Source: a virus
Taxonomy: Duplodnaviria; Caudoviricetes
DNA: 32,729 bases
Reading direction: 5' to 3' (one strand)
IMG/VR virus record: IMGVR_UViG_3300016665_000258
Location: 1-32,729 of that record
Shown here piece by piece: positions 22,320 through 32,729 of the stretch. A program made the position numbers and the translations under genes. Numbering within the stretch: the first letter of the stretch is position 1; each line of letters opens with the position of its first letter. Under the pieces are notes generated by a model. That model did not search any database and had not been told where the DNA came from. It was given only the letters and a program-made list of their open reading frames with translations.

Positions 22320-24335
22320 ATGAAAAGAATTCTTCCAATCAGCAACTTCACTTTCACGCCATCACTGAACCGGGTGGATTTCAGCCCAATGGGTGGTGGA
22401 TTCAAGAAAGAGAACCTTTATGCGGTGATCAATATCACAACCGGAAAATTGGTTTATGCGGTGGCATCGGTTTCTTCGGGATTTGGTGGCACGTTTGCCG
22501 GAAACATTTTGACTTATTCTTCATCGAATGCCGGGCAATTGGCATCCGACACCCTGCAAGTCATCTATGATGATGAAACGGCCGTGCAAAATATCACGGG
22601 AACGGTGAGCATCCAAGACCCGGCAAACGTGACAGGCACTTTGGGTGCTGCCCATGCTGTACCGGCGGCAATTCATGATGGATCAGGAACCTATCAAATC
22701 CTTTCAACCCCGGACCCCGTAACGCTTCGGGAAGGTTTAGACATTAACGTTCAAAGCGCAAGCGTGCAGGGTTTGCTTAATAACCCGTTGCCGCTTCCCT
22801 ATCAGAACCAAGCCTTGAGTGTTGGTTATATCAACGGCGGTGACCTTGTGGCACCGGCCATGAACATTGGAACCAATGAATTGATTGTGGATGCCACACA
22901 AAATGGCAATCTTCCGGTGAGCATTGATGCCGTAACCACACCGATCACGGTTGACATTGGTTCGGTTCTGACTTCTCTTCCGGTTGACGTGCAATCAGTT
23001 GCCGTCACGGTTCCGGTTTCTGCCGCATCACTTCCATTGCCAACCGGTGCGTCCACAGAAACAACACTTGCGGCGGTGTCTGGAAAGCTTCCCGCAACAC
23101 TTGGTCAAAAGACCATGGCCAATTCAATGGCCGTTGTTTTGCCATCTGATCAGGTGGTGCCAGTATCGCAAAATGAAACATACACAACGGGTGCCCTGAC
23201 TCTTTCGCTTGCCAACAACATTTTCAATGCCGTTGCCGGTCCAAATTCCACCGATGCGTTGGGATTCAAAACAGGATCGGTTCAACTTGTCACAAGCGCA
23301 ACCACCGGTTCTTTGATTTTTGAGCATTCAAATGACAACATCAATTATCAGCCAATGCCGGTGTTTCGGACGGATTCGGCTTCACCAAACGCCATTGTCG
23401 CAGCATTCACCCCGGTTGCATCAAGCTTTGTTTACCATTTCCCAATCAAAGCAAGATATATTCGTTGCAGGATTGCAACGGCATTGAACCAAAACGCCCA
23501 AGCGTTTCTTCGATTGTCACAAGAATCATGGACACCGATTGTGCCACAAGTGGTCAACGCAACGGCTGCCAACTTGAATGCTACTGTTTCAGGGTCTTTG
23601 ACTTCGGCCGGCACGGTTTCAACAGTCACCACTGTGACAACCGTTGCATCTGTCACTTCAGGCAATACCGGTATTCCATTGCTTGTTGTTGACGTTGCGT
23701 CAGCGGCATTGACAACCACCACCACAACAGGAACATTGACACCAACAAACGGGGTGGCCTATCAGGTTGTCATCCCGGTCACTGTCGTGGGTGGAACAGG
23801 TCCAACGCTTGATGTTTCAATTGAGGAATCAGACGATTCAGGCACCAATTGGGTGCGTGTATATGACTTCCCAAGAATCACGGCCGTTGGTGTTTATCGC
23901 TCTGGACCGATTAAGCTTAGGGGCAACCGGGTCCGCTATGTTCAAACCGTTGGCGGCACTTCGCCTTCATTCACCCGATCCATTCAAAGGCTTCAAAGAT
24001 CGGACACAATTTTCAGTCGTTTGACCATGATCAACAGAACCATTGACCCCAACACCTTGAACAGCACTTCAACGGTGCTTTACTGTGACGGTGCATCTGA
24101 ATTCAATTATTATATGCGTTGTACCGCTCAAACAACGGCGGCAACAATTCAAATTCAATTCAGTGATGACAACACAAATTGGTATTCTCCGGCAACCGCA
24201 ACGCTGACAACCATCAATGGCATTGTCAAAGGGAACATTGCAGATGAATATTGGCGTTTTGCCCGGGCAATCGTAACGGCACCGGGAACCGGAATCACAC
24301 TTGGTGAATTTTCATTGAAAGGCGCAAGGGAATGA
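22320..24335 (+). CDS. Fibre/spike-like structural protein with three beta-sandwich modules
   Basis: Thr/Ser/Val-rich; three modules with E/F-x-S-x-D..NW/NY ... R(Y/F)-x-R pattern; ATG 22320 preferred to TTG 22308. Confidence 0.7.
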   Translation: MKRILPISNFTFTPSLNRVDFSPMGGGFKKENLYAVINITTGKLVYAVASVSSGFGGTFAGNILTYSSSNAGQLASDTLQVIYDDETAVQNITGTVSIQDPANVTGTLGAAHAVPAAIHDGSGTYQILSTPDPVTLREGLDINVQSASVQGLLNNPLPLPYQNQALSVGYINGGDLVAPAMNIGTNELIVDATQNGNLPVSIDAVTTPITVDIGSVLTSLPVDVQSVAVTVPVSAASLPLPTGASTETTLAAVSGKLPATLGQKTMANSMAVVLPSDQVVPVSQNETYTTGALTLSLANNIFNAVAGPNSTDALGFKTGSVQLVTSATTGSLIFEHSNDNINYQPMPVFRTDSASPNAIVAAFTPVASSFVYHFPIKARYIRCRIATALNQNAQAFLRLSQESWTPIVPQVVNATAANLNATVSGSLTSAGTVSTVTTVTTVASVTSGNTGIPLLVVDVASAALTTTTTTGTLTPTNGVAYQVVIPVTVVGGTGPTLDVSIEESDDSGTNWVRVYDFPRITAVGVYRSGPIKLRGNRVRYVQTVGGTSPSFTRSIQRLQRSDTIFSRLTMINRTIDPNTLNSTSTVLYCDGASEFNYYMRCTAQTTAATIQIQFSDDNTNWYSPATATLTTINGIVKGNIADEYWRFARAIVTAPGTGITLGEFSLKGARE

Positions 24336-24496
24336 TGATCACAATTTGGAAGATGGTCAATGACGGGTGGGAATTGGTGGAAGAATTGCAAGATGATCTT
24401 GCCTTGGCACAAAGGCTTTCAGAATTACGCACGGACGGTGAAGAATACCGGGCAGAAAAGCGTGACGGTGGATTTGCAACCGTCTTGGAGGATTAA
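24332..24496 (+). CDS. Hypothetical protein (54 aa, not in ORF track)
   Basis: MMITIWKMVNDGWELVEELQDDLALAQRLSELRTDGEEYRAEKRDGGFATVLED; ATGA overlap with the previous gene. Confidence 0.65.
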   Translation: MMITIWKMVNDGWELVEELQDDLALAQRLSELRTDGEEYRAEKRDGGFATVLED

Positions 24497-24498
24497 AA

Positions 24499-24771
24499 AT
24501 GCCAGCGTCACCATACCAAACAAAGCTTGCAAGGCTCAACAATGAGATCAACAACCAAATCATTGGTGCTTTTGCGGATGCCCAAACTGAATTGATGGCA
24601 ATCAGCGCACCGCCGACAACCTACCTTGAACTTCAATGGGATGGTTCTTTTGTGAATCGTGCTTGGGACAACAACAAGGTTGTGAACTTAGACCTATCCG
24701 AACAAAACAGATTACTAAGTCAGCTTGATGGTCTTTTCAAAAAGGCTGTTTACGCATTAAATTTGCCATAA
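24499..24771 (+). CDS. Hypothetical protein
   Basis: SD GGAGGA; tight packing. Confidence 0.7.
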   Translation: MPASPYQTKLARLNNEINNQIIGAFADAQTELMAISAPPTTYLELQWDGSFVNRAWDNNKVVNLDLSEQNRLLSQLDGLFKKAVYALNLP

Positions 24772-24785
24772 TAGGAGGATGAACT

Positions 24786-25115
24786 ATGCCGGCACCGGTT
24801 ATTTTTGAAGGCGCAACTGACACCATTCTAAATGGTCAAAAAGTTTTTACAGCAAACAAGGCCAACATTGCCCAAAGCGCATTTGTCAAAATGTCGGTTT
24901 ATGATCCTATTGGCATTGGCACATTTGGAAGCACGTTTGAGTGGGGTTGCCCGGATGGTCCAACCTTTATTTTCTCAATCAGCAATAGTGAAATTTTATA
25001 CAATGGCACGCCATATTCTGGTCTTGGTGCTGAAGAAAAGGCCATCTTTCACAAATGGCTTCCACAGTTTTCTAAGCAATTTGTGATCAAATACAATCGA
25101 GAATTCGGAATCTAA
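24786..25115 (+). CDS. Hypothetical protein
   Basis: SD AGGAGGA; last + strand gene, convergent with the - strand block. Confidence 0.7.
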   Translation: MPAPVIFEGATDTILNGQKVFTANKANIAQSAFVKMSVYDPIGIGTFGSTFEWGCPDGPTFIFSISNSEILYNGTPYSGLGAEEKAIFHKWLPQFSKQFVIKYNREFGI

Positions 25116-25684
25116 TTGATTCCAAGTTCACCGGCGCAAATGTCCCAAATGTCGTTCATCTGGTAGGGCACGGTGGTTGGCAAAATCTGATAATGGTTAA
25201 ATCCTCTGAGGTGAGCGATCTCGTGAATGAGATTACGGGCAATGTCATTTCGATCTTTCACAAAGAACCGATTTTGGAAGACGGTGTCAGGGATTGAATC
25301 CCGGACATACCCAATCACCCCAAAAAGGTGATTTTCAAAAAAGCTTCCTGTGTAATAAATGACATGAATGCCTTTCACACCCGAGCGCAACCGGTTGAAT
25401 ATTTCCTGATTGTTCATGCCGTCCGTTTCGGTGAAATCCCGGGAGAACAATTCCCGGGCAAAACAGTTTGATGAATAAACAATGTTGAGATTTTCAACGG
25501 CTGCGGCAAGTTCAAGAATTTCGGACCGGGTGCCCTTCGCTGAAAGCAATTCCACAAATGGCACTTCAATCAGTTGGACCGGTTCAAGGTAGGTGATTGC
25601 CGGGGTCATGATGCCTTTCACGTCTGGAATAAAAAAGACCACACCCATTGCGAACAACAAAACAGCCAAGCGCAAAATCATCAT
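25112..25684 (-). CDS. Secreted/membrane-anchored zincin-like metalloprotease
   Basis: N-terminal hydrophobic MMILRLAVLLFAMGVVFF; HEIAHLRGFNH motif, VPY; ATGA overlap fixes the start at 25684. Confidence 0.7.
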   Translation of the reverse strand: MMILRLAVLLFAMGVVFFIPDVKGIMTPAITYLEPVQLIEVPFVELLSAKGTRSEILELAAAVENLNIVYSSNCFARELFSRDFTETDGMNNQEIFNRLRSGVKGIHVIYYTGSFFENHLFGVIGYVRDSIPDTVFQNRFFVKDRNDIARNLIHEIAHLRGFNHYQILPTTVPYQMNDIWDICAGELGIN

Positions 25685-26694
25685 CCCTTGAATACCTTTC
25701 CCCCGAAAGAAAACTGACCATTGAAAATTTTTGGGCAATAGAAAGAAAAGGCACCATCCCGGCGCACTTCGAAGACCCCGAAGGCATGGACCCAATTGTT
25801 GGGCCGTCCCTTCAGGAATGGCGCATCAAGCCGGCACAGGCACCCAAGGCTTGCCGCTTCAATCTGGCCATTCATGGTTGGTTCATGGTGGGTCAAAACA
25901 TCATGGGTGTGAAAATAGTAAATGTTGCCCTTGATCAGATTCAGGTGTTTCTTTGCTGCACTTGGTCCAGTGAACAGCCCATGGGTGAAATGAAGCTTTC
26001 CAATTTTCAGAATCTCATTGACCGGGATCAGGGGAATGCCCCGGGCCGGCAAGTCTAGCAGACTGGAAAGGTCGGGCATCAAGCCCAGTTCATCAAGGCC
26101 GAAAAAGAATTCCGGCATTTTGGCAACCATGGCTTGTCTGATCCAGTCTTCGTGATTGCCTTCGATATATAAAAGGTCACCAGACGCACACAATTTCGAT
26201 TTAAGCGCATCCAAAGCCTTCCTTGCTTCCATGACCTCAGGAATGAAAGACTTCGGCTTAAGGTCATTTGAAGGCCAATGGGAAATCCCCTCAGCGTCAA
26301 GAAAGTCACCCCCGATGATGTGCAAATGTGGACGGAAATGATCAAGAAATGAAAGCATTGCACCAACCGCCCGGTCATCCCGGTGCTTCATGTGGGTGTC
26401 GGGTTGTGCCGTGATGCGTAGGATTTCCGGGTTGCCGTGCTTTTCAAACAATTCATCAAGGTCAAGTTCATGAACCTTGAAGCTTTCAATCTGGCGTTTC
26501 TTCCATTTGAACTTTTGTGGCTTTTCTTTCTTGTTCGGTTCAAGGCCGGCAGCGTGAAGAAACGGGGTGAATCCCCCGAAGTGCCGGGAATAGGCTTCCC
26601 CGTGTTCCTTTCGGAATTCGTCCCGGGTTGGCACACGCCCCAAATCGGATGCGAGTGCCTTCAATTTTTGAAGCAAGGCAACCTTCGCATCCAT
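25681..26694 (-). CDS. Calcineurin-like metallophosphoesterase with N-terminal helical (homing-endonuclease-associated repeat-like) domain
   Basis: DTH, GGDFLD, GNHEDW, HG, HTH motifs; N-terminal LGRVPT..EF...YSRHFGGF...L.AAGL. Confidence 0.88.
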   Translation of the reverse strand: MDAKVALLQKLKALASDLGRVPTRDEFRKEHGEAYSRHFGGFTPFLHAAGLEPNKKEKPQKFKWKKRQIESFKVHELDLDELFEKHGNPEILRITAQPDTHMKHRDDRAVGAMLSFLDHFRPHLHIIGGDFLDAEGISHWPSNDLKPKSFIPEVMEARKALDALKSKLCASGDLLYIEGNHEDWIRQAMVAKMPEFFFGLDELGLMPDLSSLLDLPARGIPLIPVNEILKIGKLHFTHGLFTGPSAAKKHLNLIKGNIYYFHTHDVLTHHEPTMNGQIEAASLGCLCRLDAPFLKGRPNNWVHAFGVFEVRRDGAFSFYCPKIFNGQFSFGGKVFKG

Positions 26695-26743
26695 GCACTT
26701 TAATTGTTGCACACCCTCGAGGGATTAAAAGAGAATTATTTCA

Positions 26744-27025
26744 ATGAAAGTGCCAAGCAAGATTAAGATCAAAGGCCGGGTGTTTTATCAGGTGGTTTGG
26801 GCCGATGAAATCAAGGGCAATCCTGACACCATGGGATTGTCCGAACCAAATGAGAAGACAATTTATTTGAAGCTTGGAATGTCAGAATCCGAAACACTGA
26901 AGACCCTGATTCATGAAGTCATCCATGCAATCGAGTTTGAATGGAATGAACCAATCCCCCACCGGATCACCTACACTTTGGAAGAAGGGATTTTCAAAGT
27001 GCTGAAGTTGAATAAGTGGATTTGA
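26744..27025 (+). CDS. Small HExxH (minimal zincin-like) phage protein
   Basis: P.KIKI.G..Y.V, TLIHEVIHAI. Confidence 0.75.
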   Translation: MKVPSKIKIKGRVFYQVVWADEIKGNPDTMGLSEPNEKTIYLKLGMSESETLKTLIHEVIHAIEFEWNEPIPHRITYTLEEGIFKVLKLNKWI

Positions 27026-27466
27026 TCAGCTTGCCCAATCCGAACAGGTGACCTTTTGCCCCTTAGCAATTGGCAATTCAATGAAGGAATCTTCAAAGTC
27101 AGTCAGGCGGGTTTTCTTTTTCACCCTTGTCCCGGCCGCAACGTCATCAAGCTTGAACCAAACAAAGCGATTCATTTCCTTATTCATGACCACAAAAATC
27201 ATGGGCCGGTGTTGGAAGATTCTTTCTTTTCGGCTTGGGATGTGAACCGTCTTGAACGGGAACCGTGCCCCGGTCCAATTGTGCTTCACTTCGATTTCAA
27301 CAAATCCCTGAAATACGCTTCCCCGGTAGGCAATTAGGTCCGGCCCGAAAATGTCGGGATTGTCCACCAAGTGCAACCCCCACATTTCGGCAAAAGATTG
27401 GCGCACCCGTGCCCGGGCCGGTCCGTCATTCTGGTCATGCAATTCTTTTGAAAACGGTTTTTTCAT
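27026..27466 (-). CDS. PD-(D/E)XK-type nuclease
   Basis: FGPDL...FVEIEVK, FPF.TVHIP.RK; start MKKPF with ATGA overlap. Confidence 0.7.
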   Translation of the reverse strand: MKKPFSKELHDQNDGPARARVRQSFAEMWGLHLVDNPDIFGPDLIAYRGSVFQGFVEIEVKHNWTGARFPFKTVHIPSRKERIFQHRPMIFVVMNKEMNRFVWFKLDDVAAGTRVKKKTRLTDFEDSFIELPIAKGQKVTCSDWAS

Positions 27467-27654
27467 ACCGAAGCCAAGGCATCCCGGGCAATGCGTGTGT
27501 CTTTGGCTATGACTTCGGCACATTGTTCAACGCCTTGGTTTGTCCAAAAAGATTTCCGAGAATGTTCCGGAAAATCAAATGATGCAATTTCCATAAGTGC
27601 TTTTTTTAGTTTGTTATAGTCAGCCAAAAATTTTTTGATTTCTCGGTCGGTCAT
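27463..27654 (-). CDS. Hypothetical protein
   Basis: SD GAAAGGA; LKKAL.EIA...IARDAL pattern. Confidence 0.65.
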   Translation of the reverse strand: MTDREIKKFLADYNKLKKALMEIASFDFPEHSRKSFWTNQGVEQCAEVIAKDTRIARDALASV

Positions 27655-27718
27655 TTTTTTGTCCTTTCTTTTGGGGTGGGGCAAGTGCAAATGAAAATCA
27701 AACAGCTTGGTTGGTGTG

Positions 27719-27856
27719 TCATTGGAAGTTTGCCAGTCTGAAAAAGATAGGCCAAAAAGTCAGGTGGAAGACCACCAAAAAAAAGGCAATGTCTTTGACC
27801 GATATTCTCACAACGATTTCGGACCGGTAGTTTTCAACTTTCTTTTCCATCACCAT
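27719..27856 (-). CDS. Small membrane protein (45 aa)
   Basis: MVMEKKVENYRSEIVVRISVKDIAFFLVVFHLTFWPIFFRLANFQ; overlaps the upstream stop. Confidence 0.5.
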   Translation of the reverse strand: MVMEKKVENYRSEIVVRISVKDIAFFLVVFHLTFWPIFFRLANFQ

Positions 27857-28017
27857 TCCCCTTCCAATGCTTCATTTGCAATCTGGACGGCCGTCTCATA
27901 ATCGCCTTCACAATCTATGACCTCATAAAGGGCGGACCGATAGGTGGAAATTTCCCCCTGCAAATGAGTTACATAGTCAATCAATTGTTCACGTGTTAAT
28001 TCTTCAGGCTTCACCAT
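27850..28017 (-). CDS. Hypothetical protein (55 aa)
   Basis: MVKPEELTREQLIDYVTHLQGEISTYRSALYEV...IANEALEGEW; SD GGAAAGGA. Confidence 0.65.
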   Translation of the reverse strand: MVKPEELTREQLIDYVTHLQGEISTYRSALYEVIDCEGDYETAVQIANEALEGEW

Positions 28018-28041
28018 TGTTTTTTTCCTTTCCTAAAATGA

Positions 28042-28099
28042 CCCGGTGGATGTTGCTTCAACCGTGCAGAATCGAAAATTGCACAATTCACCCACCGGG
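28042..28099 (-). other. Long intergenic RNA hairpin with UUCG-containing loop
   Basis: CCCGGUGGGUG...CAUCCACCGGG outer stem, AAUUGUGCA/UGCACGGUU inner stem; G-U pairs favour the minus strand. Confidence 0.6.
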
Positions 28100-28112
28100 G
28101 CAATCCATTGGC

Positions 28113-28331
28113 CTATTCCAATGAATCTTTCAAAATGTCGTCAAAGTTATTGTCCAGAAAGCTTGCCCAATCTGAAGAATGAATGCACCGGTTGTTGCCG
28201 GCATTGTTGTCATCAAGATCAACCTTGGTCAGTGCCCGGATTGCCGCCGCAAAGCCTTCCTTGACCCCGACCCGATAGGCCGCTTCCCTAGTTTGTGGGT
28301 TGTGGGTTTCAAGCATTGTCTTTGTGTTCAT
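28113..28331 (-). CDS. Hypothetical protein
   Basis: 72-aa ORF in a packed operon. Confidence 0.6.
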   Translation of the reverse strand: MNTKTMLETHNPQTREAAYRVGVKEGFAAAIRALTKVDLDDNNAGNNRCIHSSDWASFLDNNFDDILKDSLE

Positions 28332-28524
28332 TTGAAATCACCCTTTCAGTCATGCCACGCTTGGTGGCGAATTGGTTCCAAGCATTGATTGCTTGTTCCT
28401 TGGTTTCAAAACAGCCAACGTAAACCCTTTCACGGTTGATGGTGGTTTTGACCACCCACCGGTAGGCTTCCCCGTTGCGCTTCATCAGAAACACGCACCC
28501 GGGCTTTGCAAGCACCCTATTCAT
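28309..28524 (-). CDS. AP2-like DNA-binding domain protein
   Basis: PG......RW.V.....RERVYVGCFETKEQAI.AWN; ATGA overlap at 28524. Confidence 0.7.
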   Translation of the reverse strand: MNRVLAKPGCVFLMKRNGEAYRWVVKTTINRERVYVGCFETKEQAINAWNQFATKRGMTERVISNEHKDNA

Positions 28525-28667
28525 TTGCGCACCCCCGCCCGGTCCGTTGCCGTGAAAACGCTTTTTAGCAAGTGGAAAACCCCAAGGCCGAGCAATCCAC
28601 CGAAGACCACACAAAGGCCAAAGCAAATGCACATACCGCACAAGAAAAGAAATTCTCCGAACATCAT
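28521..28667 (-). CDS. Small membrane protein (48 aa)
   Basis: MMFGEFLFLCGMCICFGLCVVFGGLLGLGVFHLLKSVFTATDRAGVRK; ATGA overlaps at both ends. Confidence 0.6.
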   Translation of the reverse strand: MMFGEFLFLCGMCICFGLCVVFGGLLGLGVFHLLKSVFTATDRAGVRK

Positions 28668-28867
28668 TCAGACCCCCTTTTTTTCATGCACCTTTGGCAA
28701 GTGCGGCCAATCAATACGGTTACAAGTTCGCCACACTGTCGGCATGGAGTGCGCCGGCAATCGGCGCAATTCTCATGTTTGGACCCGTGAGGCTTCCCAC
28801 ATTTTTTGCAGGGGGAATAAATCCCCGAGCGCATTTTATATTTGAAATTTGGATCAGTTGAATTCAT
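28664..28867 (-). CDS. Double zinc-ribbon protein
   Basis: Four CxxC motifs (CKKC, CADC, CRQC, CQRC). Confidence 0.7.
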   Translation of the reverse strand: MNSTDPNFKYKMRSGIYSPCKKCGKPHGSKHENCADCRRTPCRQCGELVTVLIGRTCQRCMKKRGSE

Positions 28868-28953
28868 GTGAACATCCAGACAAAGAAATAGGCCGGCAAG
28901 ATTACAAGGGCGCAAAACATTGCCAACAATTCGAGTGCTTCAAAGGATTCCAT
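28864..28953 (-). CDS. Small membrane peptide (29 aa)
   Basis: MESFEALELLAMFCALVILPAYFFVWMFT; ATGA overlap with the next gene. Confidence 0.5.
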   Translation of the reverse strand: MESFEALELLAMFCALVILPAYFFVWMFT

Positions 28954-28974
28954 GGTTTTGATTCCGTTTTAATT

Positions 28975-29031
28975 CGGCGGGGGTGTGGTTTTTTAGACCA
29001 TCCCCCACCGGGTCCAATAGAAAGGAACCAC
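28975..29031 (-). promoter_or_regulatory. 3' element of recombination operon: anti-SD sequence plus GC-rich hairpin
   Basis: GUGGUUCCUUUC then CGGUGGGGGAUGGU-loop-ACCACACCCCCGCCG; no U-tract. Confidence 0.55.
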
Positions 29032-29037
29032 CCGCAA

Positions 29038-29970
29038 CTATTTGGACCCCTTTTTCAGTCTGATAAAATCTTCAACCATTTGGATGAATTCAATGCCTTG
29101 TGCATTCAGCGGCTTGCCTTGTTCTTCGGCCGAATTCTGAAGCCAAGTAGCAAACCCAACCGCATCATCAAGGCCGATTTCTTCAAGAGTCATGCCCTTA
29201 TACTTTTTCGAGAATGGCACCACATAAGTCAGGCAAGCGTCATCACCCGGGGCATTGTCAAAGCTTGGTTCACCTTCCCCGTTAGAAGACACGGGGGAAA
29301 TTGTATCTTCAAACGGGGCCGGGGATTGTTGTGCTGCCTTTGGTTGCGTCTTCACAGCTGTTTGCGGCAGCACCACATTTTTGATTTCTTTTGTTTCGGG
29401 TTGCGCTTGGGCCATTTCTTCAGAAGTGTAAAGGCCAGAAAGGTCATTTGGGAAAGCCTTTCGAAGTGCAAGCGATTCGGCAACCTTGGCAATCATCAGC
29501 CCGGGCATCTTTGCCCACATGAAAGTCAGGCTTCCATCATTCTTTCGTTGGGCATATTCATCGAAGATTGCGATTGCCGTCAACGCTTCCCGGAATCCTT
29601 TCTTGTACACGCCAACCTTGCAAGCGGCCGGTGGGGTTTTCTTGAGCCATACGTCAACCCATTTGCCGTCATCACCGCACCATTGTGGTTGTGTCTGACC
29701 CTCATATTGCCCGGACCTTTCGGCAACCAGACGGAAGCCGTCAATGCTAGTCTGAATCTGGACCTTTCCTTTGTGGTCTTTGATGAAATAAATTTGTCGG
29801 GTGATCGGATCAAGCCCGGTGCGCTTGCATTGCTCAACAAAGAATTGCAATTCAAGATCAGTTGCACCTTGGGCAACCGTGGCCTTGATCAGCGCAACCT
29901 TGTCTTGCGTGAATGTGTTTTGGATTTGTGTGTTGGTTGTGGTTACGACAGAAACGGATTGATTGTTCAT
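29038..29970 (-). CDS. bet: Phage recombination protein Bet (RecT/Red-beta family annealase)
   Basis: GATD.EL..F...[59 protein letters not shown]; alternative start 29988. Confidence 0.93.
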
Positions 29971-29984
29971 CTGATTGGTTCCTT

Positions 29985-30866
29985 TCATTGCTTGTTCAGA
30001 TTTACTTTGACATAGGTTGTACCTTTTTTTCGGTACTGATTCAAGTCAACATTTTTTAATTCTGGAATTTTTTTGTAATCAACGGACCCCTCACGCTCAA
30101 CAAGTTGAATGTTGATCCCCTCACCCTGCACTTGGGTTGCGCCATTCTCGGAAAGAATCTTTTGGGCAAGGGTTTTGATTTCTTCGTCCAGTGCGTCCAA
30201 CGCTTTTGCCGCTTCAACCGAAGCGCATTTCAATGCGTGAAGCTTCACAATGTCGGGTGATGCCAGTGAAAGCACCGGTGCCGGCAATGTCCCGGCCTTG
30301 ATTGCGTCAAGGTCTGAAAGAAAAGCTTCGGCCGATTGAAACAATGATTGTTGAAAAGCCTTATCGGCCTTCACTTCCTTGACGGAAAGTTCACCGTTGT
30401 GGACAAAGGCAAGCCAAGTGGTGGAATATCCAGTCACCGCCATTTGCCATTGCACTTGGGCAAAGTAGTGGTCAGGGGTGCTTTCCACATAGGCCGCAAA
30501 TTTCTGCACGGTTGTGCATGACTTCACTTCCAAAAGCAATTCCCGATCAGCGTCAAGGCCATCAAGGGATGCAAAGAACCGGGCATTGATGCCGGATTCG
30601 ATAACGGCCGGTTGGAAGTTGAAGCCTTGCCCATTCAATCGGTCACGCACCACCGCCTCCCATTCATGACCGGCGGCAAAGATGCCCTTTTGGTATTCGG
30701 TCAATTCCTTGGTGTGCCCCAATTTTTCCATCATCACTTCCCCCCGTTTTTTGAATGCGCCTTCAGACCCATGGATTGAAGCAATGTCACTGCCCCCAAT
30801 CCCGTTCACCCGGTACGCAAGCCATTCAGGGGTGCCTTGTTCAAGGTTGATTTTCTTGATTGTCAT
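29985..30866 (-). CDS. YqaJ/lambda-exonuclease family recombination exonuclease
   Basis: QGTPEWL..R..GIGGSD, G..WE, ASLDG, LEVK, Y.AQVQWQM.VTG. Confidence 0.93.
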
Positions 30867-30899
30867 TGTGGTTCCTTTCGTGTTGTTTGGTTCACTTGC

Positions 30900-31157
30900 T
30901 TATTGCAAGTTTTCGGTTGATTCCGAAACGTTTTGAATAATCGGGTCAAGTTCGCTGAAGAATCCAAAGCGGATGCGCCCGGTCTTGTCATCGGTTTCAA
31001 TGCAAACGGCCGTGCAATTCCATTCGAAGGTCTTGGATCGAAGGCCGGCACCTTCCGGTGACTGGTAATAAAAAAAGATTGGGGTGTTGTCGGGCAAATC
31101 GTGGGAATCGAGAACGGTTCGAAGTGCCCCAAGGGTTTGGATTTCAGGCTTTGCCAT
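30900..31157 (-). CDS. Hypothetical protein, first gene of recombination operon
   Basis: SD GAAAGGAACCAC before ATG 31157. Confidence 0.7.
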   Translation of the reverse strand: MAKPEIQTLGALRTVLDSHDLPDNTPIFFYYQSPEGAGLRSKTFEWNCTAVCIETDDKTGRIRFGFFSELDPIIQNVSESTENLQ

Positions 31158-31191
31158 TTGTGTGGTTCCTTTCGGTGTTGTTGTTGGGATC

Positions 31192-31220
31192 AATTTACTT
31201 CATGTCAAAACTGACTGCAA
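31192..31220 (-). promoter_or_regulatory. Putative sigma70 promoter of the recombination operon
   Basis: TTGCAG-17 nt-TAAATT in the intergenic gap. Confidence 0.5.
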
Positions 31221-31222
31221 GG

Positions 31223-31525
31223 CTAAAATGGCAAATCTTCATCATCATCCGGACCTGCCGCCATTGCCCGGAAATCGGTCTTGAACTTGACCGGGTCTTT
31301 TTTGGTTTCGGCTTGGTGCTTTCTGACCATGACCGGGGCGGCACCATCGGCATCCGGAGTGAAGTCTTTGGCATAGTCCAGACCCCACACCGGGATTCTG
31401 TCGGAATAGTTTTGGCCAATCGCACATGAACACCGGAAGCCATAAACACCGATCAATTCCCGATGGTGTGCAACCACCCACCCGGTTGATTTGCAGAATG
31501 CGCAACTTGGGTTGAAGGTCTTCAT
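31223..31525 (-). CDS. Zinc-finger protein with SSB-like acidic tail
   Basis: CAFC..TGW...FRCSC..G; ends DDDEDLPF. Confidence 0.7.
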   Translation of the reverse strand: MKTFNPSCAFCKSTGWVVAHHRELIGVYGFRCSCAIGQNYSDRIPVWGLDYAKDFTPDADGAAPVMVRKHQAETKKDPVKFKTDFRAMAAGPDDDEDLPF

Positions 31526-32064
31526 TCAATGGCCGCCTTTCTTGTGAATTGCCCAATCAGCTTTTGCGCTTCCCCGGTGCCGATCTGGTCCGGGAAGTTT
31601 TGCGGTTGGTTCAAGGTGCCATTGATTGCTTTCTTGTTCACGGTTTGGGCAAGGCCACGGATTTGGGCAAAGAAAGTGCCCTTGTTTTCTTCGGTCAATT
31701 CGGCACAGATGGTGGACCACCCGCCCATGCGTTGCACGCATTCCCACCCGATTTGGCCGATCCATTCCCGGGCTTCGGTGCTTCGGTATGAACCGAACTT
31801 GGAAACCGCCCCAATGACTTTTGAAGCAACGTCTTGCCCAAGGTCCAAATCCGTTTCAACCGGCTTCACAATGGCAATCAGGGCCGATGGAAGCGGAAAG
31901 AATTTGTTTGCCGGGTTGCGCCGGTATTCCTTGCAAGCCTTCACAAGTTCATCAGGTGAAAGGCACGACAAATCTTCAGCGTACATTGCAAACTGCATTG
32001 GGGTGATTTGGGTCCGGTAATATGCGGCCAAGGCTTCAAGGATTTCAACGATTGCTTTTTTCAT
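31522..32064 (-). CDS. Replication accessory protein (helicase loader/inhibitor-like, DUF6475-like)
   Basis: LA.YY....Y..DL...L..A...Y....FFP.P..L; AVSKFGSY, VQRMGGW..IC; follows the initiator. Confidence 0.65.
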   Translation of the reverse strand: MKKAIVEILEALAAYYRTQITPMQFAMYAEDLSCLSPDELVKACKEYRRNPANKFFPLPSALIAIVKPVETDLDLGQDVASKVIGAVSKFGSYRSTEAREWIGQIGWECVQRMGGWSTICAELTEENKGTFFAQIRGLAQTVNKKAINGTLNQPQNFPDQIGTGEAQKLIGQFTRKAAIE

Positions 32065-32729
32065 GACTCAACCCCCATAAGCTTCAGGGCAGCTTTTGCC
32101 GCCATTGCGTTGCTTGCTTCCCGGGCTTCCCCGTCTGACTGCCGGCTTGGTGCCACCCGTCTTGAGTCCCAAGCTCGAGCAAGCCAATTGTTTAGGAACC
32201 GGGCAAAGTCTTTCTTGCGCCTTGCCGGGTTTGATTCTTCCCATGCCACCGCCTTCAGTGCTTCCCCCTTGATGAAGGCCGAATCCGGAAAGGCTAACAG
32301 CATTGCGTCAAGTTGGGTTGGCTTCACCCCCCTTTCAAGCCAAAGTGATTTCAATTCACCAACACCATCAGGGAAGACAATCGAAGATTGCTCTGACCTA
32401 GTAGTGTTTTGTTCTGTTCTGTTCTGTTCTGTTCTGTTCTGTTCTGTTCTGTGTCGTTCGGATTCTGTACAGACTCTGTACGCAATCTGTACAGATTCAA
32501 TCTTTTCAATGGTTTGCATGAGGATTTTTGGGGTCATCAAATTAAGCCGACACCAATGGTCAACGAATAGCTCAATTTTTCCGTGTTTATTCTGTTTTGA
32601 GACCTCACAAAGTAGGAACACCAAACACAGCTTTTCTTCGTTGGAAAGGTCATTCAGTTTTGGGTCCAAAGGGAAGTCATTTGATAGCGCAAACCAATGG
32701 TGACGCTTGTAGTCTTTTCGGGGGTGGAA
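32061..32729 (-). CDS. Phage replication initiator protein (5'-truncated at window edge)
   Basis: Frame is open to the window end (FHPRKDYKRHHWFALSNDFPLDPK...); low-complexity TEQNR linker; C-terminal W...NP.RRKKD..RFL.NWL.R. Confidence 0.75.
   Translation of the reverse strand, partial: FHPRKDYKRHHWFALSNDFPLDPKLNDLSNEEKLCLVFLLCEVSKQNKHGKIELFVDHWCRLNLMTPKILMQTIEKIESVQIAYRVCTESERHRTEQNRTEQNRTEQNTTRSEQSSIVFPDGVGELKSLWLERGVKPTQLDAMLLAFPDSAFIKGEALKAVAWEESNPARRKKDFARFLNNWLARAWDSRRVAPSRQSDGEAREASNAMAAKAALKLMGVES
32411..32450. repeat. Pentanucleotide tandem repeat (GTTCT)x8 encoding TEQNR
   Basis: Directly visible. Confidence 0.95.
32464..32497. repeat. Putative iterons: TCTGTAC(AG/GC)A x3 at 11-bp spacing
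   Basis: TCTGTACAGA 32464-73, TCTGTACGCA 32475-84, TCTGTACAGA 32486-95; inside the initiator gene. Confidence 0.6.

Follow-up and report, generated by a model that had tools for sequence, protein, structure and literature searches.

The sequence directly behind the bet gene of this virus is complementary to the ribosome-binding leaders of its own recombination genes and is predicted to fold into two hairpins that are conserved among relatives. Its loop and the leaders change together from phage to phage, and in relatives leaders with the same tag are found on both strands. Based on these comparisons and on modelled folds, the element is probably a processed antisense RNA that would block translation of early genes in trans. 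Genes are called early here by position and type (small genes, recombination genes, promoter-like sites before some clusters). The window, i.e. the whole stretch of DNA analysed, is an entire virus record of 32,729 bases with an estimated completeness of 88%. Its relevant features are collected in Table 1.

Genome setting

The plus strand of the window carries the terminase, Mu-like portal, protease and capsid genes, and a minus-strand cluster consists of an 85-aa gene, a YqaJ exonuclease gene and RecT/Bet. The preliminary description had called this cluster a Red-like operon. That name fits the exonuclease and Bet, both recognized by Pfam and PHROG, but not the 85-aa protein (31157 gene), for which no Pfam or PHROG family was found and whose Atlas neighbours were all below threshold. 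Among cultured phages the best matches to Bet have <50% identity. The possible weak promoter before the 85-aa gene was below the thresholds of the promoter scans. A stricter scan found a site at the equivalent position in the related loci L052, L059, L118 and L111, and also in L083, which lacks the element. The short hydrophobic ORF that follows hairpin H2 has no clear SD, and L081 has a different short hydrophobic ORF at this place. Since genes on the same strand continue past H2, the element is intercistronic.

Elsewhere in the window, a pentamer tandem repeat (32405-32459, RTEQN repeats) lies in the gene at 32061-32729 and is adjoined by 11-nt repeats at 32456-32498. At the place of the 32405-32459 repeat, another pentamer is repeated in the sister phage G009. 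These repeats are possibly a replication origin inside an initiator gene.

Table 1. Positions of the recombination genes, the element and its target leaders in the window
Feature	Position	Strand	Remarks
Possible weak sigma70-type promoter before 85-aa gene	31192..31220	-	Found by eye; 7/12 consensus, 17-nt spacer
Target leader 1 (SD plus spacer), 85-aa gene	31162..31173	-	12 Watson-Crick pairs with loop; net -11.6 kcal/mol
85-aa gene	30900..31157	-	First of cluster; homologues 43-96% in relatives; not shown to be Gam
Target leader 2, exonuclease	30868..30879	-	12 Watson-Crick pairs; net -14.0 kcal/mol
YqaJ-type recombination exonuclease, 293 aa	29985..30866	-	PF09588, E 1.5e-15; phrog_434
Target leader 3, bet	29976..29986	-	Overlaps exo stop; 11 Watson-Crick pairs; net -5.5 kcal/mol
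RecT/Bet single-strand annealing protein, 310 aa	29038..29970	-	PF03837, E 4.1e-34; phrog_2780
Hairpin H1	29010..29049	-	5' arm includes bet stop codon; loop carries antisense seed
Antisense seed GUGGUUCCUUUC	29020..29031	-	Mostly inside H1 loop
Hairpin H2	28976..29009	-	Abuts H1; without U-tract; predicted 3' stabiliser; -23.1 kcal/mol, z -4.57
Short hydrophobic ORF, 29 aa from first ATG	28864..28953	-	Right after H2; kept in L001

A shared leader tag and its inverted copy

The leaders of the 85-aa gene, the YqaJ exonuclease and RecT/Bet share the sequence GAAAGGAACCA, and its complement is found 6 nt past the TAG stop codon of bet. The record of 32,729 bases contains GAAAGGAACCA four times: in the minus-strand leaders of the genes at 31157, 30866 and 29970, and once on the plus strand at 29020-29030. 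When one mismatch was allowed, 6 matches were found versus 1.22 expected, and 0 of 100 shuffles reached 6, for a motif that was picked after the fact. Three of the five AAAGGAACC sites in the window are leaders. Recomputation gave the 12, 12 and 11 Watson-Crick pairs that the preliminary description had claimed for the complement 6 nt after the bet stop, and all four of its coordinates were correct.

Ranked by contiguous pairing, the three tagged leaders are first to third among 90 SD-bearing ORFs of the window (12, 12 and 11 nt), followed by the 7463 leader at 9 nt and by four leaders, including that of the capsid gene, at 8 nt. All net energies of loop-leader pairing given here include opening costs. 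With these costs the bet leader falls below the untagged 27654 leader (-7.8 kcal/mol), because the site at bet is predicted to be partly folded. The strong target leaders are unstructured (opening cost 0.3-2.7 kcal/mol), so that pairing would have nothing to open and would cover the SD. A suggested weak targeting of the capsid leader was not supported: the match is 8 nt and the net energy is -3.5 kcal/mol, compared with -14.0 kcal/mol for the exonuclease. On these values, together with +1.2 kcal/mol for the protease leader, the capsid and protease leaders were rejected as strong targets. The seed matches the SD core of late leaders over 7-9 nt. Its reported likeness to the 16S 3' tail is not a conserved feature and is lacking in one loop class (class C, below), and a generic role as a 16S mimic was rejected for this reason.

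Predicted fold of the element

Hairpin H1, which in the modelled fold presents the complement in its loop, was missed in the preliminary description; the strong downstream hairpin without a U-tract that it did report is H2, and the computed energy bears it out (Table 1). In the window H2 is followed by an A-rich run with no U-tract, and it is absent from the terminator listing. Two adjacent hairpins on the sense strand were predicted in all nine element loci that were folded, with z-scores of -2.0 to -6.0. At eight of these loci the seed is 56-87% unpaired, whereas the minimum-energy fold of the ninth, L052, hides it (unpaired 0.14). Among the nine, a U-run after H2 is present in L059 only, the sequence being A-rich in the window and most relatives. 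No conserved internal promoter was found before H1, the scan giving matches in two of the nine loci and at different places. A search of Rfam gave no significant match in window positions 24000-32729 or in five other loci.

Among relatives the stems of H1 and H2 have been rewritten while the loop and both hairpins were kept. Within the class A sequences an 11-nt run overlapping the seed is invariant in seven of seven, and flanks and stems vary; in L001, H2 has a U-G to U-A change. Alignment-based evidence for covariation of the stems is weak, because slid controls score almost as well in RNAalifold (0.357 and 0.341) as the element itself (0.373, with double changes at 7 of 15 pairs). MAFFT alignments do not bring the stems of different classes into register.

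The core of H2 (UGGUCUAAAAAACCAC, in the region 28989-29000 of the window) is identical in the window, which is of class A, and in L118 (5955-5971), which is of class B. The outer H2 stems differ between the two, and L052, L054 and L081 share a different loop motif. H2 may bind something.

Distribution among relatives

Relatives were collected by protein-guided scans of viral, metagenome and genome contigs. These yielded 101 loci in which the sequence includes a bet-like gene and the 40 nt past its stop codon. The loci represent 74 distinct post-recT 35-mers. The element, pairing with a leader of the same locus over 8-15 nt, accounts for nine of the 74. Of the remaining 65, one reaches 9 nt, 62 reach at most 7 nt and two have no candidate leader. 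The element is kept in phages down to 36% exonuclease identity, and it is lacking in six relatives whose bet is 48-58% identical. Automatic screening of 63 distant exonuclease loci brought no further element to light, and others may have escaped it: two loci within this set, L117 and L118, were recognized as carrying the element only on closer reading.

One element-less relative, G006 (L083), has three consecutive genes that share the leader motif GGAGCTAA (L241:7316, 8214 and 8572), and no inverted copy of this motif is present in its complete genome. A shared leader thus does not need an RNA of this kind. In L117 the N-terminal domain of the annealing protein has been replaced by a non-RecT domain, with the same C-terminal domain, and an HNH-like gene has been inserted. 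Despite this swap and insertion the element is unchanged and the tag on the gene after exo is retained; the HNH-like gene (L117:4876-6068) has taken over the tagged leader.

Two further observations concern single loci. Between exo and bet, L041 has an inserted inverted repeat (L041:4884-4920) that occurs in that lineage only and is a possible operator, promoter or processing site. L111 (G005:C54), a 44-kb contig that carries this phage module and has a repeated end, was assigned to a genome bin titled Bacteroidetes; it may be mis-binned, and its placement was not taken as evidence of host.

Loop and leaders change together

The elements fall into three seed classes. Class A, with the tag GGAACCAC, comprises the window, L001, L052, L054, L055/L081 and L111; class B, with the tag CGAAAGGAAAC, comprises L059 and L118; class C, with the tag GGACGAA, comprises L116 and L117. 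We compared loops with leaders in a swap matrix, using a fixed 35 nt after the stop and 22 nt before the start. The matrix is block-diagonal, each class pairing best with its own leaders. Class A loops pair over 9-13 nt with A leaders, 5-8 nt with B leaders and 5 nt with C leaders. Class B loops pair over 11-14 nt with B leaders and 8-9 nt with A leaders. Class C loops pair over only 8 nt with their own leaders and over at most 6 nt elsewhere. The preliminary description had named compensatory change in related phages as a check on its proposal, and the preference of every seed class for its own leaders provides it. Since the seed classes follow the exonuclease tree, they represent about two independent switches and not nine.

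Shuffled sequences reached the observed run of pairs in 0-31 of 2000 cases for eight element loci (the 31 belonging to class C) and in 885-1977 of 2000 for six element-less relatives. Smaller changes within the classes fit this picture. L111 has a longer U-run in the loop and longer A-runs in the leaders, and the leaders of L081 have A-to-G changes that preserve G-U pairs. The tagged members of the operon vary by lineage: exo is not a Watson-Crick target in L111, L118 and L116, nor is bet in L059.

Tagged leaders outside the operon

The opposite-strand targets come from relatives, the window lacking the stretch of about 1 kb in which they are found. This stretch is covered by the sister phage G009, which is 94-95% identical to the window. 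G009 has six AAAGGAACC sites. One is the element, and the other five are leaders, of which two lie on the opposite strand. For the two opposite-strand leaders the net energies are -15.0 and -10.1 kcal/mol with opening costs. Five leaders are tagged in the complete genome G001, including two that belong to a divergent small-gene cluster on the opposite strand. G010 and G011 likewise have opposite-strand leaders with the tag. In the L111 contig six distinct genes, all on one strand, are tagged. G004 has four, and one of these lies farther downstream than the element. The opposite-strand tags point to action in trans.

The preliminary description proposed that the element shuts off its own operon. 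Pairing with the operon leaders agrees with this, but the scope is too narrow, as in relatives small non-structural genes on the opposite strand are also tagged. Given the matching leaders on the opposite strand and elsewhere in relatives, an RNA that diffuses to several early genes would fit the sequences better than shut-off of one complete transcript. No integrase or antirepressor was found among the 36 proteins of the window or among the 30 of 43 G001 ORFs that were scanned.

A small hairpin, CCCC-ACGGAC-GGGG, lies before the second gene in the divergent cluster of small genes, both in G009 (L246:8519-8560, minus strand) and in G001 (L234:7360-7377). It is the same in both although the genes differ.

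Proposed mechanism and alternative explanations

We propose that the element would be transcribed from the early promoter and that host nucleases would cut at its AU-rich flanks, releasing an RNA of ~75-90 nt from the early mRNA. H2 would serve as a 3' barrier that stabilises the released RNA. As the RNA accumulates, the H1 loop would bind the SD-plus-spacer tags in trans and block ribosome loading. Because the duplex would cover the SD of leaders that are unstructured, repression and not activation is the expected outcome. Production of Exo, Bet and other early proteins would thereby be stopped by a delayed negative feedback. A search for RNA runs matching 28400-31600 returned none, which speaks neither for nor against such an RNA.

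Two alternatives accept the pairing and differ in what it does. In a purely cis fold-back, the loop would pair with a leader on the same full-length mRNA and the transcript would be translated only while nascent. The minimum-energy fold of the 2,271-nt transcript does pair the seed with 31162-31173, long-distance interactions in hok and aapA offer a precedent (PMC6733600), and the absence of a conserved internal promoter before H1 is also in its favour. However, one seed cannot cover three leaders simultaneously, the opposite-strand leaders of G001, G009, G010 and G011 are out of reach, and intramolecular pairing is reported to have been tested and excluded for OppZ (PMC7398697). Fold-back onto the operon's own leaders is possible according to the modelled fold; as the sole mode of action it is unlikely. 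Pairing might instead stabilise early mRNAs or direct their processing, or the leaders might titrate an RNA that acts elsewhere, e.g. on host mRNAs. The covariation shows that there is pairing and not its sign, and the match of the seed to the SD core of late leaders could be read in the same direction. Against this, the duplex covers most of the spacer in addition to the SD, and this SD-covering arrangement is reported to repress in C4, OppZ and CarZ. We therefore regard a non-repressive role as improbable.

The remaining alternatives dispense with an antisense RNA. If the tag were a protein-binding site, its inverted copy could be a DNA site or a plus-strand decoy RNA with the leader sequence in its loop. 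The two strands of the window fold equally well (-39.0 kcal/mol each), and L001, L059 and L118 favour the antisense strand by as much as 3.5 kcal/mol, so that the sense fold ties or loses at four of ten loci; G006, moreover, has a shared leader without the element. At the other six loci the sense fold is better by 5-13 kcal/mol, through G-U pairs. The variants seen in leaders can still form G-U pairs with the sense strand, the neighbouring genes are all on the minus strand, and a protein would need a new specificity for each seed class, which makes this explanation quite improbable. The element could also be a product of chance, or a relic in which an ordinary hairpin at the operon end adjoins the ribosome-binding site left over from a vanished gene of the opposite strand. 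The class A sequence often serves phages as a ribosome-binding site: scanning viral contigs with the class A DNA pattern gave 41 matches, 26 of which precede a start codon on the other strand. Only two are the element, and the scan added no new contig with it. In contrast, no real ORF follows the inverted copy at any element locus checked. The preliminary description had recognized that the copy might prove to serve a real plus-strand gene, and no start that opens an ORF of at least 45 aa lies behind it in the window or in four relatives; L059 and L116/L117 give frames of only 9-12 aa, and such a gene was rejected. Phages whose exonucleases are 36-66% identical also keep the copy in the loop, where it changes in step with the leaders. 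A chance or relic origin thus appears largely refuted by the swap matrix, and we consider it very improbable.

Comparison with known systems

The element is real and conserved, and its loop and leaders covary; it would work like known antisense and 3'UTR-derived sRNAs. No description of this element was found in searches of the open-access literature. In Vibrio cholerae, the sRNAs OppZ and CarZ derive from 3'UTRs and regulate their own operons (Hoyos et al. 2020, PMC7398697). As described there, an RNA from the 3' end of an operon pairs with the translation-initiation regions of its own transcript and exerts negative feedback without a protein regulator. The element, likewise, immediately follows the coding sequence of a gene in the operon that it would target and is complementary to the translation-initiation regions of that operon. 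Both Vibrio RNAs are reported to be cut by RNase E, OppZ being Hfq-dependent and acting on one transcript, and CarZ is drawn with a Rho-independent terminator (PMC7398697), whereas no such terminator with a U-tract follows the element in the window. Unlike OppZ and CarZ, the element is phage-encoded, intercistronic and mostly without a U-tract, carries the seed within the loop of a hairpin, and is complementary to a tag on 2-6 genes, some of them in another transcription unit.

C4 of P1/P7 and the CI RNA of P4 are processed phage RNAs with seeds in loops (PMC5320573, PMC12197685, PMC4825925). According to these accounts C4 blocks a ribosome-binding site and CI causes termination, and specificity changes with the loop. 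In the element, too, the seed lies in a predicted loop and would cover ribosome-binding sites, and specificity differs between phages. C4 is described as having three stem-loops, two seeds, processing by RNase P and an antirepressor target, and CI as acting on seqA/seqC. In contrast, the element has two hairpins and one seed, has YqaJ, RecT and small non-structural genes as its putative targets, and has no Rfam match; neither three stem-loops with two seed loops nor an antirepressor or immunity target was found for it. In hok, the Helicobacter pylori aapA toxin mRNAs and the leader of the MS2 maturation gene, a distant downstream anti-SD is reported to close the ribosome-binding site in cis on one gene (PMC6733600). 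Here several leaders are matched, and the opposite-strand tags of relatives show that anti-SD and target are not confined to the same transcript.

Another likeness is found in the cluster K mycobacteriophages, which carry a 13-bp start-associated sequence (SAS) whose function was stated to be unknown (Pope et al. 2011, PMC3203893). The same report describes a single inverted copy, not linked to a start, in four K1 phages, and the passages on SAS in PMC11373665 and PMC12699233 still leave its role open. Like the tag described here, SAS is an extended ribosome-binding tag whose conservation goes beyond 16S pairing, is present on a subset of non-structural genes and has one inverted copy in K1; the two differ in being of unrelated sequence and from unrelated phage groups. 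The tag of our phages is likewise a repeated, SD-overlapping sequence on a subset of non-structural genes.

We found the single inverted SAS in a hairpin loop in five K1 mycobacteriophages, where the intergenic region around it is structured and conserved. A long hairpin between gene 96 and gene 97 of Anaya holds it in a 10-nt loop (L252:31871-31883; Anaya 59870), in a region that matches 150 phage records. In Adephagia it is at 58685 (L266:1386), between genes 92 and 93, a gap reported as the start of late transcription (PMC11373665). Among nine aligned cluster K phages the anti-SAS core is present in four (Anaya, CrimD, Peanam and LilPharaoh), altered in Ekdilam and absent from four (Yuna, Keshu, SirPhilip and Pixie). 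As the inverted copy is missing in four of nine and altered in one, it cannot be the whole explanation of SAS. No loop-borne inverted SAS was found in the stretches of Kratio, Unicorn and ZoeJ that were examined; an inverted copy in ZoeJ turned out to be the ordinary leader of a leftward gene.

Implications

To our knowledge, each of the known phage antisense RNAs (C4, CI, sar and OOP) controls one locus. We suggest tentatively that many phages might possess a protein-free regulon made of one ribosome-binding tag on early genes and one anti-tag loop RNA that switches them all off, of which the bet element and the inverted K1 SAS would be instances. If so, an RNA that reads a tag on dispersed genes would provide a temporal switch and a brake on recombination proteins for <100 nt. 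The natural loop/leader pairs of different sequence make the claim testable with reporters, and the seed/leader classes might serve as orthogonal translation switches. If it is true for K1, this would be the first testable function for SAS in culturable phages, and it could be tested in M. smegmatis.
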